Shown here: piece by piece, positions 1 through 7,448 of the stretch
How positions within the stretch are numbered: position 1 is the first letter of the stretch
Layout: every line of letters starts with the position of its first letter
From: a virus
DNA: 11,434 nt
IMG/VR virus record: IMGVR_UViG_3300033072_000982
Reading direction: 5' to 3' (one strand)
Notes under the pieces: generated by a model
What the model was told of the DNA's origin: nothing
The model's database searches: none
What the model saw: the letters and a program-made list of their open reading frames with translations, nothing else
Made by a program: the position numbers and the translations under genes

Positions 1-387
1 TATAATATTTTTAATAGTTGAATAATTATTTGAATATTTTCCTTTATATTTTTTTATAGTGTCATATATAAACATTATAATATTATCAGGTGATACAATT
101 TTTTTATCAAATAAAAATATATCAAAATTTTTATCTTCTATTTTTTTACTACCAGAATATTTTGAATAATCAAGAATATAAAATAATTTACTTTGTCCAA
201 ATTCCCGATCATAATAAAAAACATATTCCCGATTAGAATCTGGCTCATGTATAAATATTTTTTTATTTGTTTCAGATTCTATAAATTTTTTAAGATGATT
301 TAATAAGTCATTTATTTTTAATTCTTTTTTAAAAAATTTACTTTTAATATCTGATATAAAATTATCATATAATTTAAGTTTTTTCAT
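1..387 (-). CDS. Cassette-family protein, partial: N-terminus in window (start ATG at 385-387), C-terminus beyond the window edge
   Basis: Manual reverse translation from 387 down to 1 gives MKKLKLYDNFISDIKSKFFKKELKINDLLNHLKKFIESETNKKIFIHEPDSNREYVFYYDREFGQSKLFYILDYSKYSGSKKIEDKNFDIFLFDKKIVSPDNIIMFIYDTIKKYKGKYSNNYSTIKNII with no stop. The ATG overlaps the TGA stop of the upstream family member as ATGA, inside the conserved junction motif. The N-terminus resembles MKYIKQYDNF of the 1894-3210 gene. It is absent from the supplied ORF track, presumably because it runs off the edge. Confidence 0.55.
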   Translation of the reverse strand, partial: MKKLKLYDNFISDIKSKFFKKELKINDLLNHLKKFIESETNKKIFIHEPDSNREYVFYYDREFGQSKLFYILDYSKYSGSKKIEDKNFDIFLFDKKIVSPDNIIMFIYDTIKKYKGKYSNNYSTIKNII

Positions 388-743
388 AGATTATATTTTT
401 TTGTTGTATCATATAAATCTGCAAACTTATTAACTTGATATTTTGATAAATAAACATTTATTTCATAGAAAGTTTTATAATTATTTACATACTCACTAGA
501 AACTTTTAACTTATATTTTTTTAGAAAATCATAAAATTTATCATATGTTTCTTCCTCTGTGAATAATTGAAAATAAAATGTAAATATTGTTTTATTTTTT
601 TCTGACTCACCAAATAAACATTCTTCAAATCCATCATCATTTGATATATTTAACATTTCTTCTAAATACAATGCTGCTGATGTACATTTATCTTGGAAAT
701 CAAATGCACCTGAATAATCTTCGTATATTTGTATATGTTTCAT
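384..743 (-). CDS. Cassette-family protein (119 aa), N-term MKHIQIYED, C-term TKKYNL; body unrecognised
   Basis: Track ORF. Start lies in a TTATAAATGAAACAT junction (TAA stop of the upstream gene immediately followed by ATG). Its own TGA stop overlaps the next ATG (CTATGAAAAAAC). Shares the family N/C-terminal peptides. Confidence 0.7.
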   Translation of the reverse strand: MKHIQIYEDYSGAFDFQDKCTSAALYLEEMLNISNDDGFEECLFGESEKNKTIFTFYFQLFTEEETYDKFYDFLKKYKLKVSSEYVNNYKTFYEINVYLSKYQVNKFADLYDTTKKYNL

Positions 744-1016
744 TTATAAGTTATATTTTAATGCGGCTACTTCTTCTTCAGTAGCTTTTATAAGATTATC
801 TTGTTTTATCCAACTATAAAAACCTTCTCTATCGGCTAATTTATCTTTATCTTCATATTTTTTTAAACGGCAAACATCTTTAACCATTGTATATTGACGA
901 CAATCATAACCATCAACAACATATATTGTATTCGTGTTATCACCAATAATTTTTACAGGATCACTAATATTAAATTTTTGAATAACTTTATCTTCATATG
1001 TTTTTATATATTTCAT
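744..1016 (-). CDS. Cassette-family protein (90 aa), MKYIKTYED...ALKYNL
   Basis: Track ORF. Junction upstream reads AAAAAATATAACTTATAACTTATGAAATAT, i.e. the canonical junction with a 7-bp TAACTTA tandem duplication that creates a TAA stop and moves the ATG 6 nt downstream. Confidence 0.65.
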   Translation of the reverse strand: MKYIKTYEDKVIQKFNISDPVKIIGDNTNTIYVVDGYDCRQYTMVKDVCRLKKYEDKDKLADREGFYSWIKQDNLIKATEEEVAALKYNL

Positions 1017-1019
1017 AAG

Positions 1020-1361
1020 TTATAAGTTATATTTTTTTGCATTTAATATTATTTCTAAATCTTCTTTATTTTCTGAATATTCTAAAATATCATAACGGGA
1101 AAACCATATAATATTTTTACCTTTTATTTCATCTGTAGCAAAAAAATGCATTATATTATCAGGAACATTATCATAGTGAATGGCGTATGGAAAATCAACA
1201 TTACTAAGATGTTTTACATATTGACCAATATTGTTGCTTATAAATTTTTTTAATTTATTAACATTTTCTACACCAGAAGCATAGCCACTAGATTCTTGAC
1301 AAATTACATAACTTCCAATCCTTAATCTATTTACATTTTCGTATTTTTTTATATATTTCAT
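1020..1361 (-). CDS. Cassette-family protein (113 aa), MKYIKKYEN...NAKKYNL; body unrecognised
   Basis: Track ORF. Canonical ATGA overlap junction at 1358-1361 (AAATATAATTTATGAAATATA). Confidence 0.7.
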   Translation of the reverse strand: MKYIKKYENVNRLRIGSYVICQESSGYASGVENVNKLKKFISNNIGQYVKHLSNVDFPYAIHYDNVPDNIMHFFATDEIKGKNIIWFSRYDILEYSENKEDLEIILNAKKYNL

Positions 1362-1894
1362 AAATTATATTTATTAATATTTTTTTTCATTAAATAATAA
1401 TCATATTGTTTTGGTGCTTCATTTTTAAGAAAATCTAATATTTTTTTCTTTAATGTTTTTGTTAATCTATCACTTTCATCTAATAAATCATAAAAATCAT
1501 ATTTCCAATCTTCACCTTTATCAACAAATATACTTGTATCTGCGCCTGCTTTTATAAGCATCTTAAACATAGCAAAATATTTATCATCACTTTTCTTTCT
1601 AAAATTATAAATAGAATTAGTTAATACTGTATCACCATCTTTATTTCGTAAATTAACATTATATCCATGATCTATAAATAATTTAACAATTTCTAAATTA
1701 ATACCTGTTGTATAAGATTGTGTAGCAATAATTGTTTGTAGATCATCAAGAAAATCCGGCATATAACCGCTATCTAATAATCCTTTTACAATACTTACTT
1801 CATCATTTTCAATAGCCAAATTCATTAGTTTTTCCTTTTGAGTATTATTCAAATCTAATGTCACCAAATCTTCAAATGTTTTAAGATATTTCAT
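1358..1894 (-). CDS. Cassette-family protein (178 aa) with ankyrin-like repeats
   Basis: MKYLKTFED...NINKYNL. The body contains ankyrin-like segments (DHGYNVNLRNKDGDTVLTNSIY...MLIKAGADTSIFVDKGEDW). The start overlaps the upstream TAA as TAATG. Confidence 0.78.
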   Translation of the reverse strand: MKYLKTFEDLVTLDLNNTQKEKLMNLAIENDEVSIVKGLLDSGYMPDFLDDLQTIIATQSYTTGINLEIVKLFIDHGYNVNLRNKDGDTVLTNSIYNFRKKSDDKYFAMFKMLIKAGADTSIFVDKGEDWKYDFYDLLDESDRLTKTLKKKILDFLKNEAPKQYDYYLMKKNINKYNL

Positions 1895-3210
1895 TATAAA
1901 CCATATTTTTCTGTATTTTCACCAAAAATAAACTTTTCATAAGCTTCCAAATCAGCTTTAGTTCCATTTTTGAGAATATATTTTTCAAATTCACTAGTTT
2001 TTAACCATTTTAATATATCACCATTAATAATTTTAGCAAGTTCAAATAAATTACCTTCTTTATCATTATAATTTATATAGATTTTATACCAATAACTAAA
2101 TAATGTATATTCAATATTATTTTTAAATAATTCTAAATTATCAACTTGAATTAATTTTGGAAATATATCATCTGGACTATCTAAATATTTTTCTACTACA
2201 TTTTCAACTTCTCTATTTAAATCTTTATATCCATTTTTTATATAATCTTCTAATCCTTCATATTCTATATCATATGAAAAATCATTCTGAACATTTTCTA
2301 AAAATTCTGAAATACTTTTAATTTCTTGTAGATTATGTTTTTTAATATATTTTATAATATCTTCATAATCAAAATATAATTCAATATCAAATTTTTCTTT
2401 ATTTGAATAACTTATTTCAAAAGGAATTGTTTTTAATTCATCTTTTATACTTGCTTTTAATGCTTGTTCTTTTTCAGATGATATTTCATCTTTAAAATCT
2501 GTTAATTCTCTTTTTAAACCTAATTTTATGAAAAATTCATGAATCACACCTATATCAATATCACCATATTTATCATATTTTAATTCATATTTTAGTAATT
2601 TTGCTAATGCTTCTATTTTTTTAATATTTTCATAACTTAAATATCTATCAAGATAATCTAATTCACTATCATCTATATAATATTCATAATTACTATAATA
2701 ATTTGTAATGTTTAACATCCAATTTATTACACCATCATTTATATTCATTAAATTTTCTAATTCATCTGATTTCATAAATATAGTTAATGAATCAGATTTA
2801 TAAATTTCATCTTCACTTTGCCATCTATCAGATTTAACTTGATAATCATTTTCATCTATACCAATATAGTTTTGAATATCTTTTGGATCAAAATCTGATT
2901 CTAAAAATGTTAATAAGTTTTTTTCATTTTCTTCATTACTTTCTGTAACAGAGTTTCTTAAATATTCTTGTTGTTTTAATTTTTGATATTGTAAATCTTT
3001 AAGCTTTTGAATTTTATCATTTTTATCATTATTCATTTTAGCATGTTTATTAACATTCTTATTCTTAGGATCATCTAATCTTTTTCTAAGACTTTTAATT
3101 CCCCTTTGTAAAAATTGAATACTCTTATCAATATTCTTTTTTACTTTAAAAGGTTTTGCCGAATTTACTTTAATTGGCTTAAAATTATCATATTGCTTAA
3201 TATATTTCAT
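1894..3210 (-). CDS. Cassette-family protein (438 aa), acidic/low-complexity, probable fusion of two cassettes
   Basis: MKYIKQYDNF...TEKYGL. Very D/E/K/Y rich. An internal relic of the family start motif sits at plus coordinates 2335-2357 (TTATAAAATATATTAAAAAACAT versus canonical TTATGAAATATATTAAAAAATAT), encoding ..DIIKYIKKHNL.. Confidence 0.72.
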   Translation of the reverse strand: MKYIKQYDNFKPIKVNSAKPFKVKKNIDKSIQFLQRGIKSLRKRLDDPKNKNVNKHAKMNNDKNDKIQKLKDLQYQKLKQQEYLRNSVTESNEENEKNLLTFLESDFDPKDIQNYIGIDENDYQVKSDRWQSEDEIYKSDSLTIFMKSDELENLMNINDGVINWMLNITNYYSNYEYYIDDSELDYLDRYLSYENIKKIEALAKLLKYELKYDKYGDIDIGVIHEFFIKLGLKRELTDFKDEISSEKEQALKASIKDELKTIPFEISYSNKEKFDIELYFDYEDIIKYIKKHNLQEIKSISEFLENVQNDFSYDIEYEGLEDYIKNGYKDLNREVENVVEKYLDSPDDIFPKLIQVDNLELFKNNIEYTLFSYWYKIYINYNDKEGNLFELAKIINGDILKWLKTSEFEKYILKNGTKADLEAYEKFIFGENTEKYGL

Positions 3211-3219
3211 TTTTTACTG

Positions 3220-3786
3220 TTATAAATTATATTTTTCAGCATTTTTCTTAGCTTCATATCCTTTTGGATCTAATTTCCACTCATTATATTCTTCTAAATT
3301 ATCATATATTAAACGATTATTTTTACAATATAATTGTCTTAATTTTGGTAATTTTGGTAATTCAGTTAATTGATTATTAGAACAAATTAATCCTTTTAAT
3401 GTTTTTGGTAATTCTGGTAAATTACTTAATTGATTATTAGAACATTCTAATTCTTTTAATGTCTTTGGTAATTCTGGTAAATTACTTAATTGATTATTAT
3501 AACATTCTAATTCTTTTAATGTCTTTGGTAATTCTGGTAAATTACTTAATTGATTATTAGGACAATGTAATTTAATTAATGATTCTGGTAATTTAGGTAA
3601 CTCAGTTAATTGATTACCATGACAAGATAAGATTTCTAAATTAATATACTCACTTAAATCTGGTAATTTAGTTAAATTCTGATTAGAGAAATTCAAGTCA
3701 GTGATTTTTGATTTATCGTTTACTTCTTTTGACGATTCGATTCGGTTTACGCCCTTTATTTCCTCGTATGTTTTAATATATTTCAT
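3220..3786 (-). CDS. Cassette-family protein (188 aa) with bacterial YopM/IpaH-type 20-residue leucine-rich repeats
   Basis: MKYIKTYEE...AEKYNL. Body has about 6 tandem 20-aa LRRs (LSNLPELPKTLKELECSNNQ), encoded by 60-bp DNA repeats. Start is in a canonical ATGA junction. Confidence 0.85.
   Translation of the reverse strand: MKYIKTYEEIKGVNRIESSKEVNDKSKITDLNFSNQNLTKLPDLSEYINLEILSCHGNQLTELPKLPESLIKLHCPNNQLSNLPELPKTLKELECYNNQLSNLPELPKTLKELECSNNQLSNLPELPKTLKGLICSNNQLTELPKLPKLRQLYCKNNRLIYDNLEEYNEWKLDPKGYEAKKNAEKYNL
3301..3660. repeat. 60-bp tandem repeat array (about 6 units) encoding the LRR units
   Basis: Units align exactly with the 60-column sequence lines. Units 3421-3480 and 3481-3540 differ at 1 nt; 3361-3420 and 3541-3600 are close copies; outer units are more diverged. 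Confidence 0.85.
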
Positions 3787-3800
3787 AAATTATATTTTTT
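3777..3800 (-). promoter_or_regulatory. Canonical inter-cassette junction motif AAAAAATATAATTTATGAAATAT (stop/start ATGA overlap)
   Basis: Encodes the ..KKYNL tail of the upstream gene, a TGA stop, and the ATG-AAA-TAT of the downstream gene in one 23-mer. Near-identical copies occur at about 4232-4257 and 1353-1373. Variants with 2-12 nt insertions occur at about 377-403, 736-758, 1008-1037, 1884-1908 and 3202-3236. Confidence 0.45.
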
Positions 3801-4241
3801 CGCATTTTTCCAATCTAAATAGTTTTCATATTTATCTGGATAATCTTCAATAACTATTTCTAAATATTGATCATCTAATTGATTAATAAAATCTTCATCA
3901 TCAATATTATTTATATTCCAATTTGCGCCAGATTCAATTAAAAATTGAATCATATTAAAATTATTAGATTGAGCTGCTATCATTAAAGATGTATTACCAT
4001 TACCATCTGGATAATTAATATTAGCACCTTCTTTTAATAATTTTTTTGCATGATCTAATCTATCATAATATGCAGCAGCAGTTAGTGGTGTGAAATTATT
4101 ATCATCAACAAAATTTAAACTATAGCCACTATTTAAAAAATTAATAAGTATTTTATTAAACATTTGTTCTGCAAATACTATGGCAGACATTAACTTATAT
4201 CGCATTTTTTGTTTGCTTTCAAAATATTTTAAATATTTCAT
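3783..4241 (-). CDS. Cassette-family protein (152 aa) with two ankyrin repeats
   Basis: MKYLKYFES...NAKKYNL. Ankyrin signatures present (FTPLTAAAYYDRLDHAKKLLKEGANINYPDGNGNTSLMIAAQSNNFNMIQFLIESGANWN). ATGA junctions at both ends. Confidence 0.85.
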   Translation of the reverse strand: MKYLKYFESKQKMRYKLMSAIVFAEQMFNKILINFLNSGYSLNFVDDNNFTPLTAAAYYDRLDHAKKLLKEGANINYPDGNGNTSLMIAAQSNNFNMIQFLIESGANWNINNIDDEDFINQLDDQYLEIVIEDYPDKYENYLDWKNAKKYNL

Positions 4242-4257
4242 AAATTATATTTTTTTG
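4232..4257 (-). promoter_or_regulatory. Canonical inter-cassette junction motif (copy)
   Basis: GGCAAAAAAATATAATTTATGAAATATTT on the minus strand, the same stop/start architecture as 3777-3800. Confidence 0.45.
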
Positions 4258-5275
4258 CCATTATAACTTCTGGATAATTCTTTTCAATCCAATCTTTTAC
4301 AATATTTATAAATTTAAATTTTTTCAATGATAAATCATAAAAATTTTCATTATCATTATTAGTATGAAATATATTAGCTCCCGCTTTAATTAATTCTTTT
4401 AACATTTTTAATCTACCTTCTTTTGCAGCAAGTAAAAGTGCAGTATTACCATTAATATCAGTTTCTTCTAAATTATATTTATTACTATTTAACAATTTTA
4501 AAAAATGTGAATAATTGACATTTACAATATCAGACATCAATTCATTCCAGTCATTTTTAGCATTAATTATATCTTGTTTAAGTGAATTTGTTATTCTACC
4601 ACCATTAAATAATTCAGTAAGAACTTTTTCTTTATTTGTTATTTTAGATAATTCTTTCTTTACATCTGCATAATTTTCTGATCCAATTTCAACAACTTCA
4701 ATATGTGGGTATTTATTTTTCACTATTTCTTTAATTTTTTTATTATTGTAATAATCTTTCTTTAAAATAATTCTTTTAACATATTTACTGACATCTAATT
4801 TATCAGTAAGTATTAATTCTTCTGCTATACCAAAATCCATAGCACTTTTATCGGTTTTTACTCTCCATAATAATTTACCAACGTTTTTATCTTTTGACCT
4901 TAATTGATTTTGGAATCTACCTAATTTAGTTTTCGCTGGCTTACCTTCAAAATCCAAATAAAAATCAGGATTTTCAGAAAAAGGTATAATTCTATACTTA
5001 TCAGATATCTTTTCAACATCTAATTCTAATGCTGGTAATCCTAAATAATTTAAATTTCTAGTTGCTGAAATTGTTTTAAATTTAGTATCATTTTCTTTCC
5101 AATGTGGTAAAACAGATTTTCTTAATGCAGTATTCCAAAATTTGCAATCATCATTATCACCACCACCACATTTTATATAACCATCTTTTAATATGCTTTC
5201 TAAAGATGATGTTTTATGAAACAATTGATAGTTTCCTTTTCTTTCAAAAATTTTGTATGTTTGTAAATATTTCAT
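4238..5275 (-). CDS. Cassette-family protein (345 aa): unrecognised N-terminal domain plus C-terminal ankyrin repeat; probable fusion of two cassettes
   Basis: MKYLQTYKIFE...MAKKYNL. An internal ..NSNKYNL-EETDINGNTALLLAAKEG.. is encoded by AAATATAATTTAGAAGAAAC (plus 4462-4482), a degenerate copy of the junction AAATATAATTTATGAAATAT. First gene of the minus-strand array; its upstream region is the 5276-5514 intergenic hub. Confidence 0.8.
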   Translation of the reverse strand: MKYLQTYKIFERKGNYQLFHKTSSLESILKDGYIKCGGGDNDDCKFWNTALRKSVLPHWKENDTKFKTISATRNLNYLGLPALELDVEKISDKYRIIPFSENPDFYLDFEGKPAKTKLGRFQNQLRSKDKNVGKLLWRVKTDKSAMDFGIAEELILTDKLDVSKYVKRIILKKDYYNNKKIKEIVKNKYPHIEVVEIGSENYADVKKELSKITNKEKVLTELFNGGRITNSLKQDIINAKNDWNELMSDIVNVNYSHFLKLLNSNKYNLEETDINGNTALLLAAKEGRLKMLKELIKAGANIFHTNNDNENFYDLSLKKFKFINIVKDWIEKNYPEVIMAKKYNL

Positions 5276-5514
5276 AGTTCTATATATAAAAATTGTAAGA
5301 GATATTTTTTTTATTTAAAAAATATTCCTTATCTTTGTTCTATGAAAAAGACAACAAAAACATATACCGAATTGAATGAAATACAGAGATTAAAAATCTC
5401 TAAAGTTTTCATGTATAATAAACTTGATAAGCAAATGCTTAATGAGTGTAAAATTGTATTTGAAGGTGACAAAATGAAATACCTATTTGTTAATGAAATG
5501 ATAATTGATTTGTA
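5276..5514. promoter_or_regulatory. Divergent intergenic hub between the minus-strand and plus-strand arrays (presumed bidirectional promoter region)
   Basis: Only sizeable non-coding gap in the first 7.8 kb. Contains a perfect palindrome AGAGATTAAAAATCTCT (5385-5401) and two plus-strand copies of the family start motif ATGAAATAC (5376 and 5474). The second opens a 13-codon mini-ORF MKYLFVNEMIIDL whose TAA overlaps the 5515 ATG as TAATG. Confidence 0.4.
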
Positions 5515-6138
5515 ATGAAAATAAGACAAGGCTTTGTAAGTAATAGTAGTTCAAGCAGCTTCGTTTTACAAGTTGGAGAAAAATTCTCAACTGTAAAAGA
5601 AGTTGCTCGTTATATTTTAAATACATGTATTTCAGAATGGGGTACAACTGAAAATTTTGAAAAAGAATTAATTGAACTTGATAAAATTAGTTCAGACACA
5701 CCAGTATTTTTCAATACTGGAGGTGATCACACTTATATTCGTAAGATGGATAATAAGTTAGTTATTACAACTTCTCAAAATATTGATCTTCCAGATATTT
5801 CTAACATTAGTTTGAATGATAATGATTTGACTGATGATTTTTATCATCAATTTGATTATATTGATAAATATATGGATCTTGAAGAAGAAATTATAGTTGA
5901 TTCAATTGAAGGATTAGATGGTCAACATAAATTTAATGATTTTTATTCTCTTCAGTATGGATTATATGGTAGACATACATATCTTGATAATATTTGTCCT
6001 ATTTGTAATAAAAGTTTTAGAGCATTTAAATTAAAAAATGGTGATGTTATATGTAATTGTCAACTTGAAAAATATGCTAAGTCTTTACTTAGAAAGAATA
6101 AATTGAAAGAAATAAATGAAAACAATAATAGTAAATAA
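5515..6138 (+). CDS. Hypothetical protein (207 aa), N-terminal MKIRQGFVSNSSSSSF motif and C-terminal Cys4-type zinc-ribbon-like motif (CPICN..x13..CNC)
   Basis: Track ORF. Paralog of the 7030-7446 gene through its first 18 residues; codons differ but amino acids are conserved. C-terminus KEINENNNSK is encoded by the AAATAAATGAAAACA junction that contains the next gene's ATG. Confidence 0.75.
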   Translation: MKIRQGFVSNSSSSSFVLQVGEKFSTVKEVARYILNTCISEWGTTENFEKELIELDKISSDTPVFFNTGGDHTYIRKMDNKLVITTSQNIDLPDISNISLNDNDLTDDFYHQFDYIDKYMDLEEEIIVDSIEGLDGQHKFNDFYSLQYGLYGRHTYLDNICPICNKSFRAFKLKNGDVICNCQLEKYAKSLLRKNKLKEINENNNSK

Positions 6139-6436
6139 GAGTGATAGAGATAATGTATCTATTAATTTTGCAAACAACAAAAATATTTTTATAACATTTA
6201 GGAACAAAATCTATAATGAATTAAAAATCAATTCAACTTTTGATTTAATAAATGCACATAAATTTACTGATAAATATAATATATTTGAAGGTTGTAAAGT
6301 AATAGATATTTCATTTATTGAAAATACTATACATTCAAATGAACATTTTATACGAGTTAAAACAATTACAGAAAAAGATATTTTAGCAAAAAATAGAAAA
6401 GATAAATTAAATAATATTAATGGAACTATACAATAA
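6116..6436 (+). CDS. Hypothetical protein (106 aa), overlaps upstream gene by 23 nt
   Basis: Track ORF starting MKTIIVNKSD at the TAAATG junction motif. No recognisable domain. Supported mainly by tight operon-like packing. Confidence 0.5.
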   Translation: MKTIIVNKSDRDNVSINFANNKNIFITFRNKIYNELKINSTFDLINAHKFTDKYNIFEGCKVIDISFIENTIHSNEHFIRVKTITEKDILAKNRKDKLNNINGTIQ

Positions 6437-7043
6437 ATATATTAAATTAAATGAATTTAAAACATCTGAAATAGCATTTGTTAATTGTAGTAATACAATA
6501 TTAAAAGTACATGTTTATTTTGTAAAATTATTCAATGGACAATCTGGCTTTTTTACAGACAATTCAGGCGAATTAAAAAGATTAACAACACTTTTTCTTA
6601 AAAAAAGAGCATCTTCCGGTTACCTGACCAATATAACTGAAAATAGAGAAAAATTTTTTTTATCAAATACAGAAAATATTATTCGAGATATTCAACCAAC
6701 TACTCAGCATTATTCTTATATCAAAATTATTGATGATAAACAAAATCCACAATTAAATGATCAAATATTAATATTTAAATATGGAAATCTTATTACTAAT
6801 ATTATAGGTGATTATTTTTCTAATTTAGAAGATGGTGAGTTATTAGAAATAAAGAAAAGTTTTATACTAAAATTAGAAAATAAAGGTGGATTTCCATCAT
6901 ATGATAATAGTCATTTTACAAATAGATACTATCATGTATGTGATTATAATTTAGATTTAAATTCTGAAATTCATTTCAACAATTTTAATTTAAATAAATA
7001 TATTAGAACAGAAAAAATTAAAAAAATAAATGAAAACACGTAA
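6420..7043 (+). CDS. Hypothetical protein (207 aa)
   Basis: Track ORF. Overlaps neighbours by 17 nt and 14 nt. C-terminus KKINENT is encoded by the second copy of the AAATAAATGAAAACA junction. Confidence 0.6.
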   Translation: MELYNKYIKLNEFKTSEIAFVNCSNTILKVHVYFVKLFNGQSGFFTDNSGELKRLTTLFLKKRASSGYLTNITENREKFFLSNTENIIRDIQPTTQHYSYIKIIDDKQNPQLNDQILIFKYGNLITNIIGDYFSNLEDGELLEIKKSFILKLENKGGFPSYDNSHFTNRYYHVCDYNLDLNSEIHFNNFNLNKYIRTEKIKKINENT

Positions 7044-7446
7044 CGGATTTGTAAGCAATTCATCATCAAGTAGTTTTATATTACTAAGAGATATATTATC
7101 TGAAAAACAATTTGATATGATTGTTGATTATGAAGAATGGGTAAAATTTTTCATTGAGCTTGATCAAAAGAAAGGTAGTCCAGAAAAACTAAATGATAGA
7201 TTTTCATATTATGATGATTCTTGGAGAATAGTTGTAAATGATGATTATATCTTTGGTGAAACATCTATGGATAACTTTAGTATGTATGATTATTTTGATT
7301 TTATTGGTGTTGATCAAGATTTTGTATCTTGGGATAATGGTTATAATGATGAACCATATAGTTCTCAGTTAGAATTTATTAAAAAAATGAAAGTCAAAAT
7401 TCGTAAAAATAAAATTGATAAAATTAATAATAATTTGGAGGAATAA
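7030..7446 (+). CDS. Hypothetical protein (138 aa), MKTRNGFVSNSSSSSF N-terminal motif paralog, acidic/aromatic C-terminal half
   Basis: N-terminal 18 aa match the 5515-6138 gene with synonymous codon differences (Ser codons TCA TCA TCA AGT AGT versus AGT AGT TCA AGC AGC; Arg CGT versus AGA). Possible further weak similarity (IELDQ versus IELDK). Confidence 0.7.
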   Translation: MKTRNGFVSNSSSSSFILLRDILSEKQFDMIVDYEEWVKFFIELDQKKGSPEKLNDRFSYYDDSWRIVVNDDYIFGETSMDNFSMYDYFDFIGVDQDFVSWDNGYNDEPYSSQLEFIKKMKVKIRKNKIDKINNNLEE

Positions 7447-7448
7447 TT

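Follow-up and report, generated by a model that had tools for sequence, protein, structure and literature searches.

A 15-mer repeated at two overlapping gene junctions of an apparent huge bacteriophage is probably a by-product of shared protein ends and dual coding

The IMG/VR record IMGVR_UViG_3300033072_000982 is a contig of 11,434 nucleotides (nt), analysed here over its entire length (the window). Its plus strand carries a series of small, tightly packed genes, and one 15-mer, AAATAAATGAAAACA, spans the stop/start junction of two overlapping pairs of them. An exact string search found exactly two copies in the window, both on the plus strand, at 6110-6124 and 7024-7038. The first-pass annotation had reported an identical pair, and the two exact copies bear this out, although its positions (6111-6125 and 7025-7039) lie one base too far to the right. 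As set out below, the repeat probably results from the proteins encoded on its two sides. The genes of the locus and the two copies are as follows.

5342..7835, plus strand: six genes, tightly packed or overlapping, that probably form a single operon; no terminator-like site inside.
5515..6138, plus strand: gene for a 207-residue protein, a paralogue in the family with the N-terminus MKxRxGFVSNSSSSSF (GFVSN family); upstream partner at junction 1.
6116..6436, plus strand: gene for a 106-residue protein, MKTIIVNK...; downstream partner at junction 1, with a homologue in the related locus L026.
6420..7043, plus strand: gene for a 207-residue protein resembling the T4 gp32 single-strand DNA binding protein (SSB), matching phrog_224 (E 3.6e-9); upstream partner at junction 3.
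7030..7446, plus strand: gene for a 138-residue protein of the MKTRNGFVSNSSSSSF family; downstream partner at junction 3, adjoining in relatives a gene for a 128-residue protein and one for a major-vault-protein (MVP)-like protein.
6110..6124, plus strand: 15-mer copy 1; the frame of 5515..6138 gives (E)-I-N-E-N, that of 6116..6436 gives TAA-ATG-AAA-ACA (stop, M-K-T).
7024..7038, plus strand: 15-mer copy 2; the frame of 6420..7043 gives (K)-I-N-E-N, that of 7030..7446 gives TAA-ATG-AAA-ACA.

Both junctions are co-directional, out-of-frame gene overlaps whose downstream starts are backed by homologous N-termini. The ATG at 6116-6118 opens the 106-residue open reading frame (ORF) MKTIIVNK..., which aligns from Met1 with its homologue in L026 (MKTIIVNKSDR versus MKLIIVNKEDR; 40% identity), a gene that is itself preceded by an intergenic region. 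The ATG at 7030-7032 opens the 138-residue ORF, and its N-terminus, MKTRNGFVSNSSSSSF..., is common to dozens of homologues. The upstream ORFs end in ...RKNKLKEINENNNSK (5515..6138, overlapping gene 6116..6436 by 23 nt) and in ...RTEKIKKINENT (6420..7043, overlapping gene 7030..7446 by 14 nt). Two parts of the earlier description are thereby borne out, namely that the 15-mer supplies the ATG of a downstream gene beginning MKT.. and that it encodes the C-terminal K[EK]INEN of the upstream gene in another frame. The match of gene 6420..7043 to T4 gp32-type single-strand DNA binding proteins covers residues 83-206 and stops at position 237 of the 318 in the profile; the gene product looks like a short gp32-like protein carrying an RxEKIKKIN tail.

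By itself, an exact 15-mer repeat is not unusual in sequence of 23% GC. A second-order Markov model predicts about 2.8 repeated exact 15-mer pairs in the window, and several isolated pairs found there look accidental. Since the window is the whole contig, no count within the same genome is possible, and counts were instead made on 128 kb from seven related fragments; there, 96 of the 209 proteins have an MK N-terminus. These figures are what a pure coincidence, with two A-rich starts sharing 15 bases by accident, has in its favour. It is nonetheless very unlikely. Similarity between the copies extends to 36 nt at 81% identity (6089-6124 versus 7003-7038). A position-specific model built on 208 starts predicts only 0.006 start pairs sharing positions -6 to +8 among the 16 genes of the window, so that the observed pair requires a cause. 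Moreover, a full nine-residue tail motif stands in one and the same register in both upstream proteins and at the intermediate junction, and a shuffled-tail control (below) argues against an artefact of composition. The specific cause of the shared starts is the shared peptide motifs. A tandem duplication of a gene unit was considered as another origin and rejected: junction 1 follows a GFVSN paralogue and junction 3 precedes one, so that the gene order does not fit, and pairwise BLASTP among the operon proteins gives only marginal matches apart from the shared GFVSN N-terminus.

The tail motif, R-[KRT]-x-K-[LI]-x-x-[IL]-[NK], is present in 16 of the 209 proteins. All 16 occurrences lie 11-20 residues from the C-terminus and none elsewhere in the proteins, and residue-shuffled tails yield 0.02 matches. 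The protein bodies ahead of the motif are unrelated and fall into at least nine families, including the GFVSN family, the gp32-like SSB and a membrane protein. Within the window, five consecutive genes, from 5515 to 7835, all end in R-[K/T]-x-K-[L/I]-x-x-I-[N/K].

6091..6117, plus strand: tail R-K-N-K-L-K-E-I-N of gene 5515..6138; ATG 6116 lies 25 nt past the Arg codon, across the Asn and Glu codons.
6395..6421, plus strand: tail R-K-D-K-L-N-N-I-N in gene 6116..6436; gene 6420..7043 has its ATG in this register too, spanning the Asn and Gly codons, with a 17-nt overlap.
7005..7031, plus strand: tail R-T-E-K-I-K-K-I-N in gene 6420..7043; gene 7030..7446 again has its ATG in this register, with a 14-nt overlap.
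7402..7428, plus strand: tail R-K-N-K-I-D-K-I-N of gene 7030..7446, without an embedded start; the next gene runs from 7449.
7800..7826, plus strand: tail R-K-E-K-L-E-Q-I-K of gene 7449..7835, followed by an intergenic region and no overlapping start.

The tail is retained where no gene overlaps it, at the end of 7449..7835 and of its orthologues. Its codons are used in genome-typical proportions: the Arg is written AGA ten times, CGT four times and CGA twice, and the aliphatic position TTA, TTG, CTG or ATT. This ordinary codon usage argues that selection acts on the peptide. DNA close to the consensus AGAAAAGAAAAATTA (at most one mismatch) is almost always found in frame 0 and 11-20 residues from a gene end. 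Further carriers of the motif occur beyond the window in L002, L003, L024, L026, L028 and L032-L039.

The embedded starts follow from the residue next to the motif. If Glu or Gly follows the motif Asn, the codons AAT-GAA or AAT-GGA contain an ATG 25 nt past the Arg codon. Such a tail-embedded ATG is the next start at three consecutive junctions of the window (6116, 6420 and 7030) and occurs in the same register in L026, L002, L028, L032 and L038. An embedded start is not obligatory for the tail: in two further genes with an RKEKLxKINE tail, one in L033, L035 and L036 and the other in L039, the embedded ATG opens only 3 or 11 codons. At orthologous junctions between the SSB gene and the GFVSN gene, the tail is kept and the start lies 25 nt (window), 32 nt (L042, as an ATGA overlap) or 34 nt (L043) past the Arg codon. 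In the window, a downstream ATG-AAA-ACA (MKT) forces xAT-GAA-AAC (Asn-Glu-Asn) on the upstream frame, and the upstream frame contributes the motif Ile-Asn. Codon bias is strong, with AAT at 86%, GAA at 92% and AAA at 88%. The DNA is identical because identical peptides are encoded in two frames under this bias and under dual coding. In our view the 15-mer is probably no dedicated signal; within one operon, it would result from the conservation of the tail, the common N-terminus, the codon bias and the reading of the DNA in two frames.

Several features of the window and its relatives indicate an AT-rich huge bacteriophage as the source, and not a eukaryotic virus. The window has about 23% GC, and related loci, in which the MVP-like protein is 80-92% identical, have 24-27%. 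This assignment draws on bacteriophage-type gene content, the gp32-like SSB and the ATGA overlaps. Loci of relatives encode GGDEF, response-regulator, cold-shock, radical-SAM, Thg1, NUDIX and glucosaminidase proteins, and among the families matched in PHROG are those of endolysins, tail-fibre-like proteins, homing endonucleases and glycosyltransferases. Where co-directional genes of the clade lie close together, an ATGA overlap outnumbers every other spacing by a wide margin (43 pairs), and there is also a tail of overlaps from -8 to -38. The MVP-like gene, 8599..11016, encodes an 805-residue protein with the shoulder and repeat domains of the major vault protein and a weak SPFH/Band-7 match. 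It has more than 6,000 homologues at E <= 1e-10, which are metagenomic and lie on contigs of up to 531 kb, and many contigs, the longest of about 530 kb, retain it at 80-98% identity. A search for the rest of the genome yielded only L001 (2.8 kb, 99.5% identical) and L040 and L041 (2.6-4.8 kb), which have the same gene order and an SSB-like protein 92% identical. The nearest relatives of greater length are the 30-kb contig of L024 and the contigs of 400-530 kb to which P0010 and P0023 belong. A related-locus search in viral contigs with genes 6420 and 6116 gave no match, nor did blastn against GenBank phages.

The first-pass annotation had taken the junction for a recurrent signal, with TAAATG as a candidate poxvirus late-promoter or initiator motif. 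Read in this way, the 15-mer or its TAAATG would be a nucleotide-level signal for transcription or initiation, either of the poxvirus type or a phage promoter ending the preceding gene. Both starts do have TAAATG, the hexamer spans the start codon in both copies as in the poxvirus TAAAT(G) element, and the 15-mer is start-associated across IMG/VR, where 64 of the 120 matches listed open an ORF of at least 60 residues. The counts speak otherwise. The 14-mer AAATAAATGAAAAC occurs only twice in the 128 kb and 210 predicted genes, both times in the window, and neither it nor the 15-mer has a further copy in the approximately 117 kb and 194 genes of relatives. TAAATG is found at 13 of 210 starts (6.2%) against 217 of all 4926 ATGs (4.4%) in the 128 kb, so the enrichment at gene starts that a signal would entail is not seen. 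Orthologues of gene 7030 are preceded by other sequences (...AAAAAAAATG, ...TTAATAATG, ...TTTATAATG and ...AAAATCAATG), which lack the hexamer, and it is amino acids that are conserved rather than bases. Scans for sigma-70-like promoters and for the Bacteroidetes TAnnTTTG element gave matches at chance level. The IMG/VR cases mostly have no overlapping upstream gene, and most of the 64 stand in intergenic contexts of unrelated AT-rich phages. Their start association thus marks the 15-mer as a generic good start context plus MKT, simply an A-rich leader and an in-frame TAA followed by ATG-AAA-ACA.

The poxvirus reading in particular does not apply, because the window belongs to a huge bacteriophage, with bacteriophage gene content, and the hexamer is not enriched at its starts; here the TAA is a mere in-frame stop before the ATG. 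In poxviruses, by comparison, late transcripts begin inside TAAAT and bear 5' poly(A) heads. Taken together, a nucleotide signal of either kind is hardly credible. What survives of the proposal that an initiation signal is embedded in the coding tail of the preceding gene is the out-of-frame start itself, set in an A-rich, G/C-poor and unstructured tail; the 15-mer as a recurrent signal does not survive. A Mimivirus-type early promoter was also tried as a candidate, since AAAATTGA is found in the tail of gene 7030 and TAAATTGA in that of gene 5515. It was rejected: the homologous tails read AAAATTAA, AAGATTGA and AAAACTGG, in which the Lys-Leu/Ile dipeptide is kept and the octamer is not.

How the embedded starts would be used is suggested by start regions across the clade. 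These are rich in A (58-72% at -18 to -9, where G makes up 2-5%), with AAA mostly as second codon; over 209 starts, A reaches 63-72% at -14 to -10 versus about 42% further upstream. No Shine-Dalgarno (SD) peak is seen, G making up 2-6% at -16 to -5 across the 209 starts. An exception is the GGAGG at 7437-7441, 7 nt before the ATG of gene 7449, which is encoded by the Leu-Glu-Glu end of gene 7030. Mean minimum free energy (MFE) is -1.9 kcal/mol at starts versus -4.5 kcal/mol in internal windows (p 5e-24), and for -30 to +20 the MFE is 0.0 at all three overlapping junctions, which are thus predicted to be unstructured. Both 15-mer copies have A at -6 and T at -3; clade-wide, A stands at 52% at -3 and 41% at -6.

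Consensus scans within 5342-7835 revealed no terminator-like site and promoter-like matches at chance level only, so that the six genes probably form one operon. A single terminator-like hairpin is found in 5200-8700, at 8511-8551, where it separates gene 7947..8486 from the MVP-like gene. Its palindrome is near-perfect, 19 bp long and bordered by runs of A and T, and it probably acts as a bidirectional terminator. The A-rich, SD-less and structure-free tail matches the start context of the clade, which makes coupled translation at the junctions likely. Ribosomes would load directly on the open, A-rich RNA of the tail; alternatively, they would re-initiate at the embedded start after terminating 14-23 nt downstream (translational coupling). 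Direct loading and re-initiation have both been discussed for closely spaced genes (PMC12548453).

The A-runs at the junctions could also be imagined as a site of programmed frameshifting at which the two overlapping ORFs are fused, and a run of seven A (7020-7026) does lie directly before the ATG of junction 3. A ribosome shifted earlier would, however, be terminated by the in-frame TAA immediately before each ATG (6113-6115 and 7027-7029), which rules out such a fusion. A -1 shift meets TGA within three codons, and in relatives the conserved N-termini of the downstream proteins are free ones. We therefore give frameshifting practically no weight.

The start regions are reminiscent of the SD-independent ones of Bacteroidia. 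Initiation has been studied in F. johnsoniae, where SD sequences are missing and A is over-represented at -14 to -11 (Baez et al. 2019, PMC6847099); A at -3, -6, -12 and -13 promotes initiation there and T at -3 is a negative determinant (PMC6847099). Regions in the clade share the lack of an SD peak, the enrichment of adenine at about -14 to -10, the low structure and the A/U-richness. They differ in that gene 7449 of the same operon is preceded by GGAGG and in that the A-rich leader is also translated here, as the tail of the preceding protein.

A number of points weigh against the interpretation of the 15-mer as a by-product of protein ends read by coupled translation. The same ATG register recurs at six or more junctions, which is more regular than a pure by-product needs, so that selection or recombination may also act to some extent on the whole junction. 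Both copies of the 15-mer have T at -3, unlike Bacteroidia-type regions, so that the Bacteroidia fit is one of general A-richness and not position by position. Coupling and re-initiation are read from the gene arrangement. Nevertheless, the junction is best described as an ordinary dual-coding stop/start overlap, with neither a novel initiation signal nor a connection to poxvirus promoters. It offers a worked example of how conserved protein termini can mimic nucleotide motifs in a very AT-rich genome. It also suggests that huge uncultivated phages use SD-less, A-rich and structure-free start regions inside upstream genes.

Recombination offers another account of the repeat. In this scheme the junction sequence, i.e. 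the tail-coding region plus the embedded ATG (about 27-36 nt), would be a linker: a direct repeat in fixed register, maintained or spread through recombination and not by peptide selection alone, that lets small genes come and go as in-frame cassettes. Gene content does vary among close relatives just upstream of the block formed by the GFVSN gene, the 128-residue gene and the MVP gene. In L026, the gene homologous to 6116 runs straight into the GFVSN gene, with the register across Asn and Glu preserved, as expected for a product of recombination between junctions 2 and 3. The motif lies on both sides of gene 6420, and downstream genes at such junctions often bear a tail too. The variable gene content and the L026 arrangement mean that the tail-coding repeats could be cassette boundaries. 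On the other side, nucleotide identity does not exceed the level predicted from peptide identity, codon bias and dual coding. The exact match of just 15 nt is short for homologous recombination, the deletion product predicted for junctions 1 and 3 is seen in no relative, and tails also occur at gene ends that are not junctions. Essentially one comparison, that with L026, speaks for the linker, which we consider unlikely.

The stretch that precedes the conserved GFVSN gene is hypervariable among close relatives, with 0, 1 or 4 extra genes. L026 2658-3399, compared with window 6116-7446, resembles an in-register deletion between tail repeats, and L024 8809-9401, compared with window 5342-7446, resembles a deletion between two repeats coding for the GFVSN N-terminus.

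The portable tail, like the parallel shared termini described below, is more interesting than the 15-mer. Tentatively, the tail R-K-E-K-L-x-K-I-N(-E) may be the feature proper, a sorting or interaction signal such as a cargo or hub-binding peptide, shared by at least nine unrelated families of small proteins in huge phages with an MVP-like gene. It may perhaps also mark a cassette boundary, since an ATG in register within the tail-coding sequence could let such a boundary spare both reading frames. This is a possibility that we consider rather unlikely. If true, either role, as sorting signal or as recombination boundary, would bear on how accessory genes of huge phages are organised and diversify.

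Shared C-termini that point the same way occur elsewhere, namely ...KKYNL* in a minus-strand array of the window and ...KRIVEL* in L007 (59% GC). The array, at 384-5275 on the minus strand, comprises eight consecutive genes that start MK[YH][IL][KQ].. and end ..KYNL* (one ..KYGL*), giving the overall pattern MKYIKTYE...KKYNL. It includes ankyrin and leucine-rich repeat proteins, its overlaps are mostly ATGA, and relatives end in K[YF]N[ILM]*. In L007 1430-16099, whose MVP-like gene is 42% identical, five nearby proteins end in K/T-R-[IV]-V-E-[LVS]* with varying codons.

The GFVSN N-terminus is another recurrent protein end. MK[TI]RxGFVSNSSSSSF is nearly invariant on divergent bodies, at 5515-5565 and 7030-7080 of the window and in L008-L023, for instance at L012 6241-10600, L019 10001-13500 and L010 10956-14866. 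In huge-phage contigs with a GC content of 25-52%, up to eight GFVSN genes per 20 kb are arranged in tandem. The proteins have no Pfam match, their sole PHROG match is phrog_7397, a family of unknown function, and a literature search for the motif GFVSNSSSSSF found no mention.

Two further repeats were observed in the window. A 17-mer, AATCAGAATAAAAAAAA, recurs at 8476-8492 and 11006-11022, where gene 7947..8486 (...ESE*) and the MVP-like gene (...KSE*) end; this stop-region repeat could be chance plus an A-run. In the minus-strand gene 3220..3786, five tandem 60-nt units at 3284-3643, which are 63-92% identical (120-nt comparison window), encode leucine-rich repeats.

Among known systems, the junctions come closest in form to the short co-directional overlaps of prokaryotic and phage operons (PMC12548453). 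Like these, they are out of frame, shorter than 30 nt and placed in a dense operon, with the start within reach of the upstream stop. The spacings commonly enriched among such overlaps are -4, -1 and -8 (PMC12548453), whereas those found here are -14, -17 and -23. A further difference is that the overlap here has a fixed place within a C-terminal peptide motif that recurs.

The tail itself invites comparison with encapsulin cargoes. Cargo-loading peptides of encapsulins are short C-terminal targeting peptides. In both cases, proteins that are otherwise unrelated bear a short conserved peptide close to their C-terminus, and in the window the tail is encoded directly upstream of, and co-oriented with, a gene that may be regarded by analogy as of a shell type (MVP-like). 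Unlike cargo-loading peptides, the tail motif is not at the extreme C-terminus, and tail genes also lie about 9 kb from the MVP-like gene. A function as a cargo or targeting peptide is speculation by analogy.

Finally, Arbiol and colleagues reportedly described, in 2010, mobile cassettes of promoter and stem-loop (PeSL) bordering small genes in the hyperplastic regions of T4-type phages. PeSL are intergenic regulatory cassettes, whereas the repeat described here is coding, is conserved as a peptide and has neither a stem-loop (MFE 0.0) nor promoter enrichment. The two resemble each other as short repeats at the borders of small, variable genes of a large phage, and either could serve to shuffle genes as modules.

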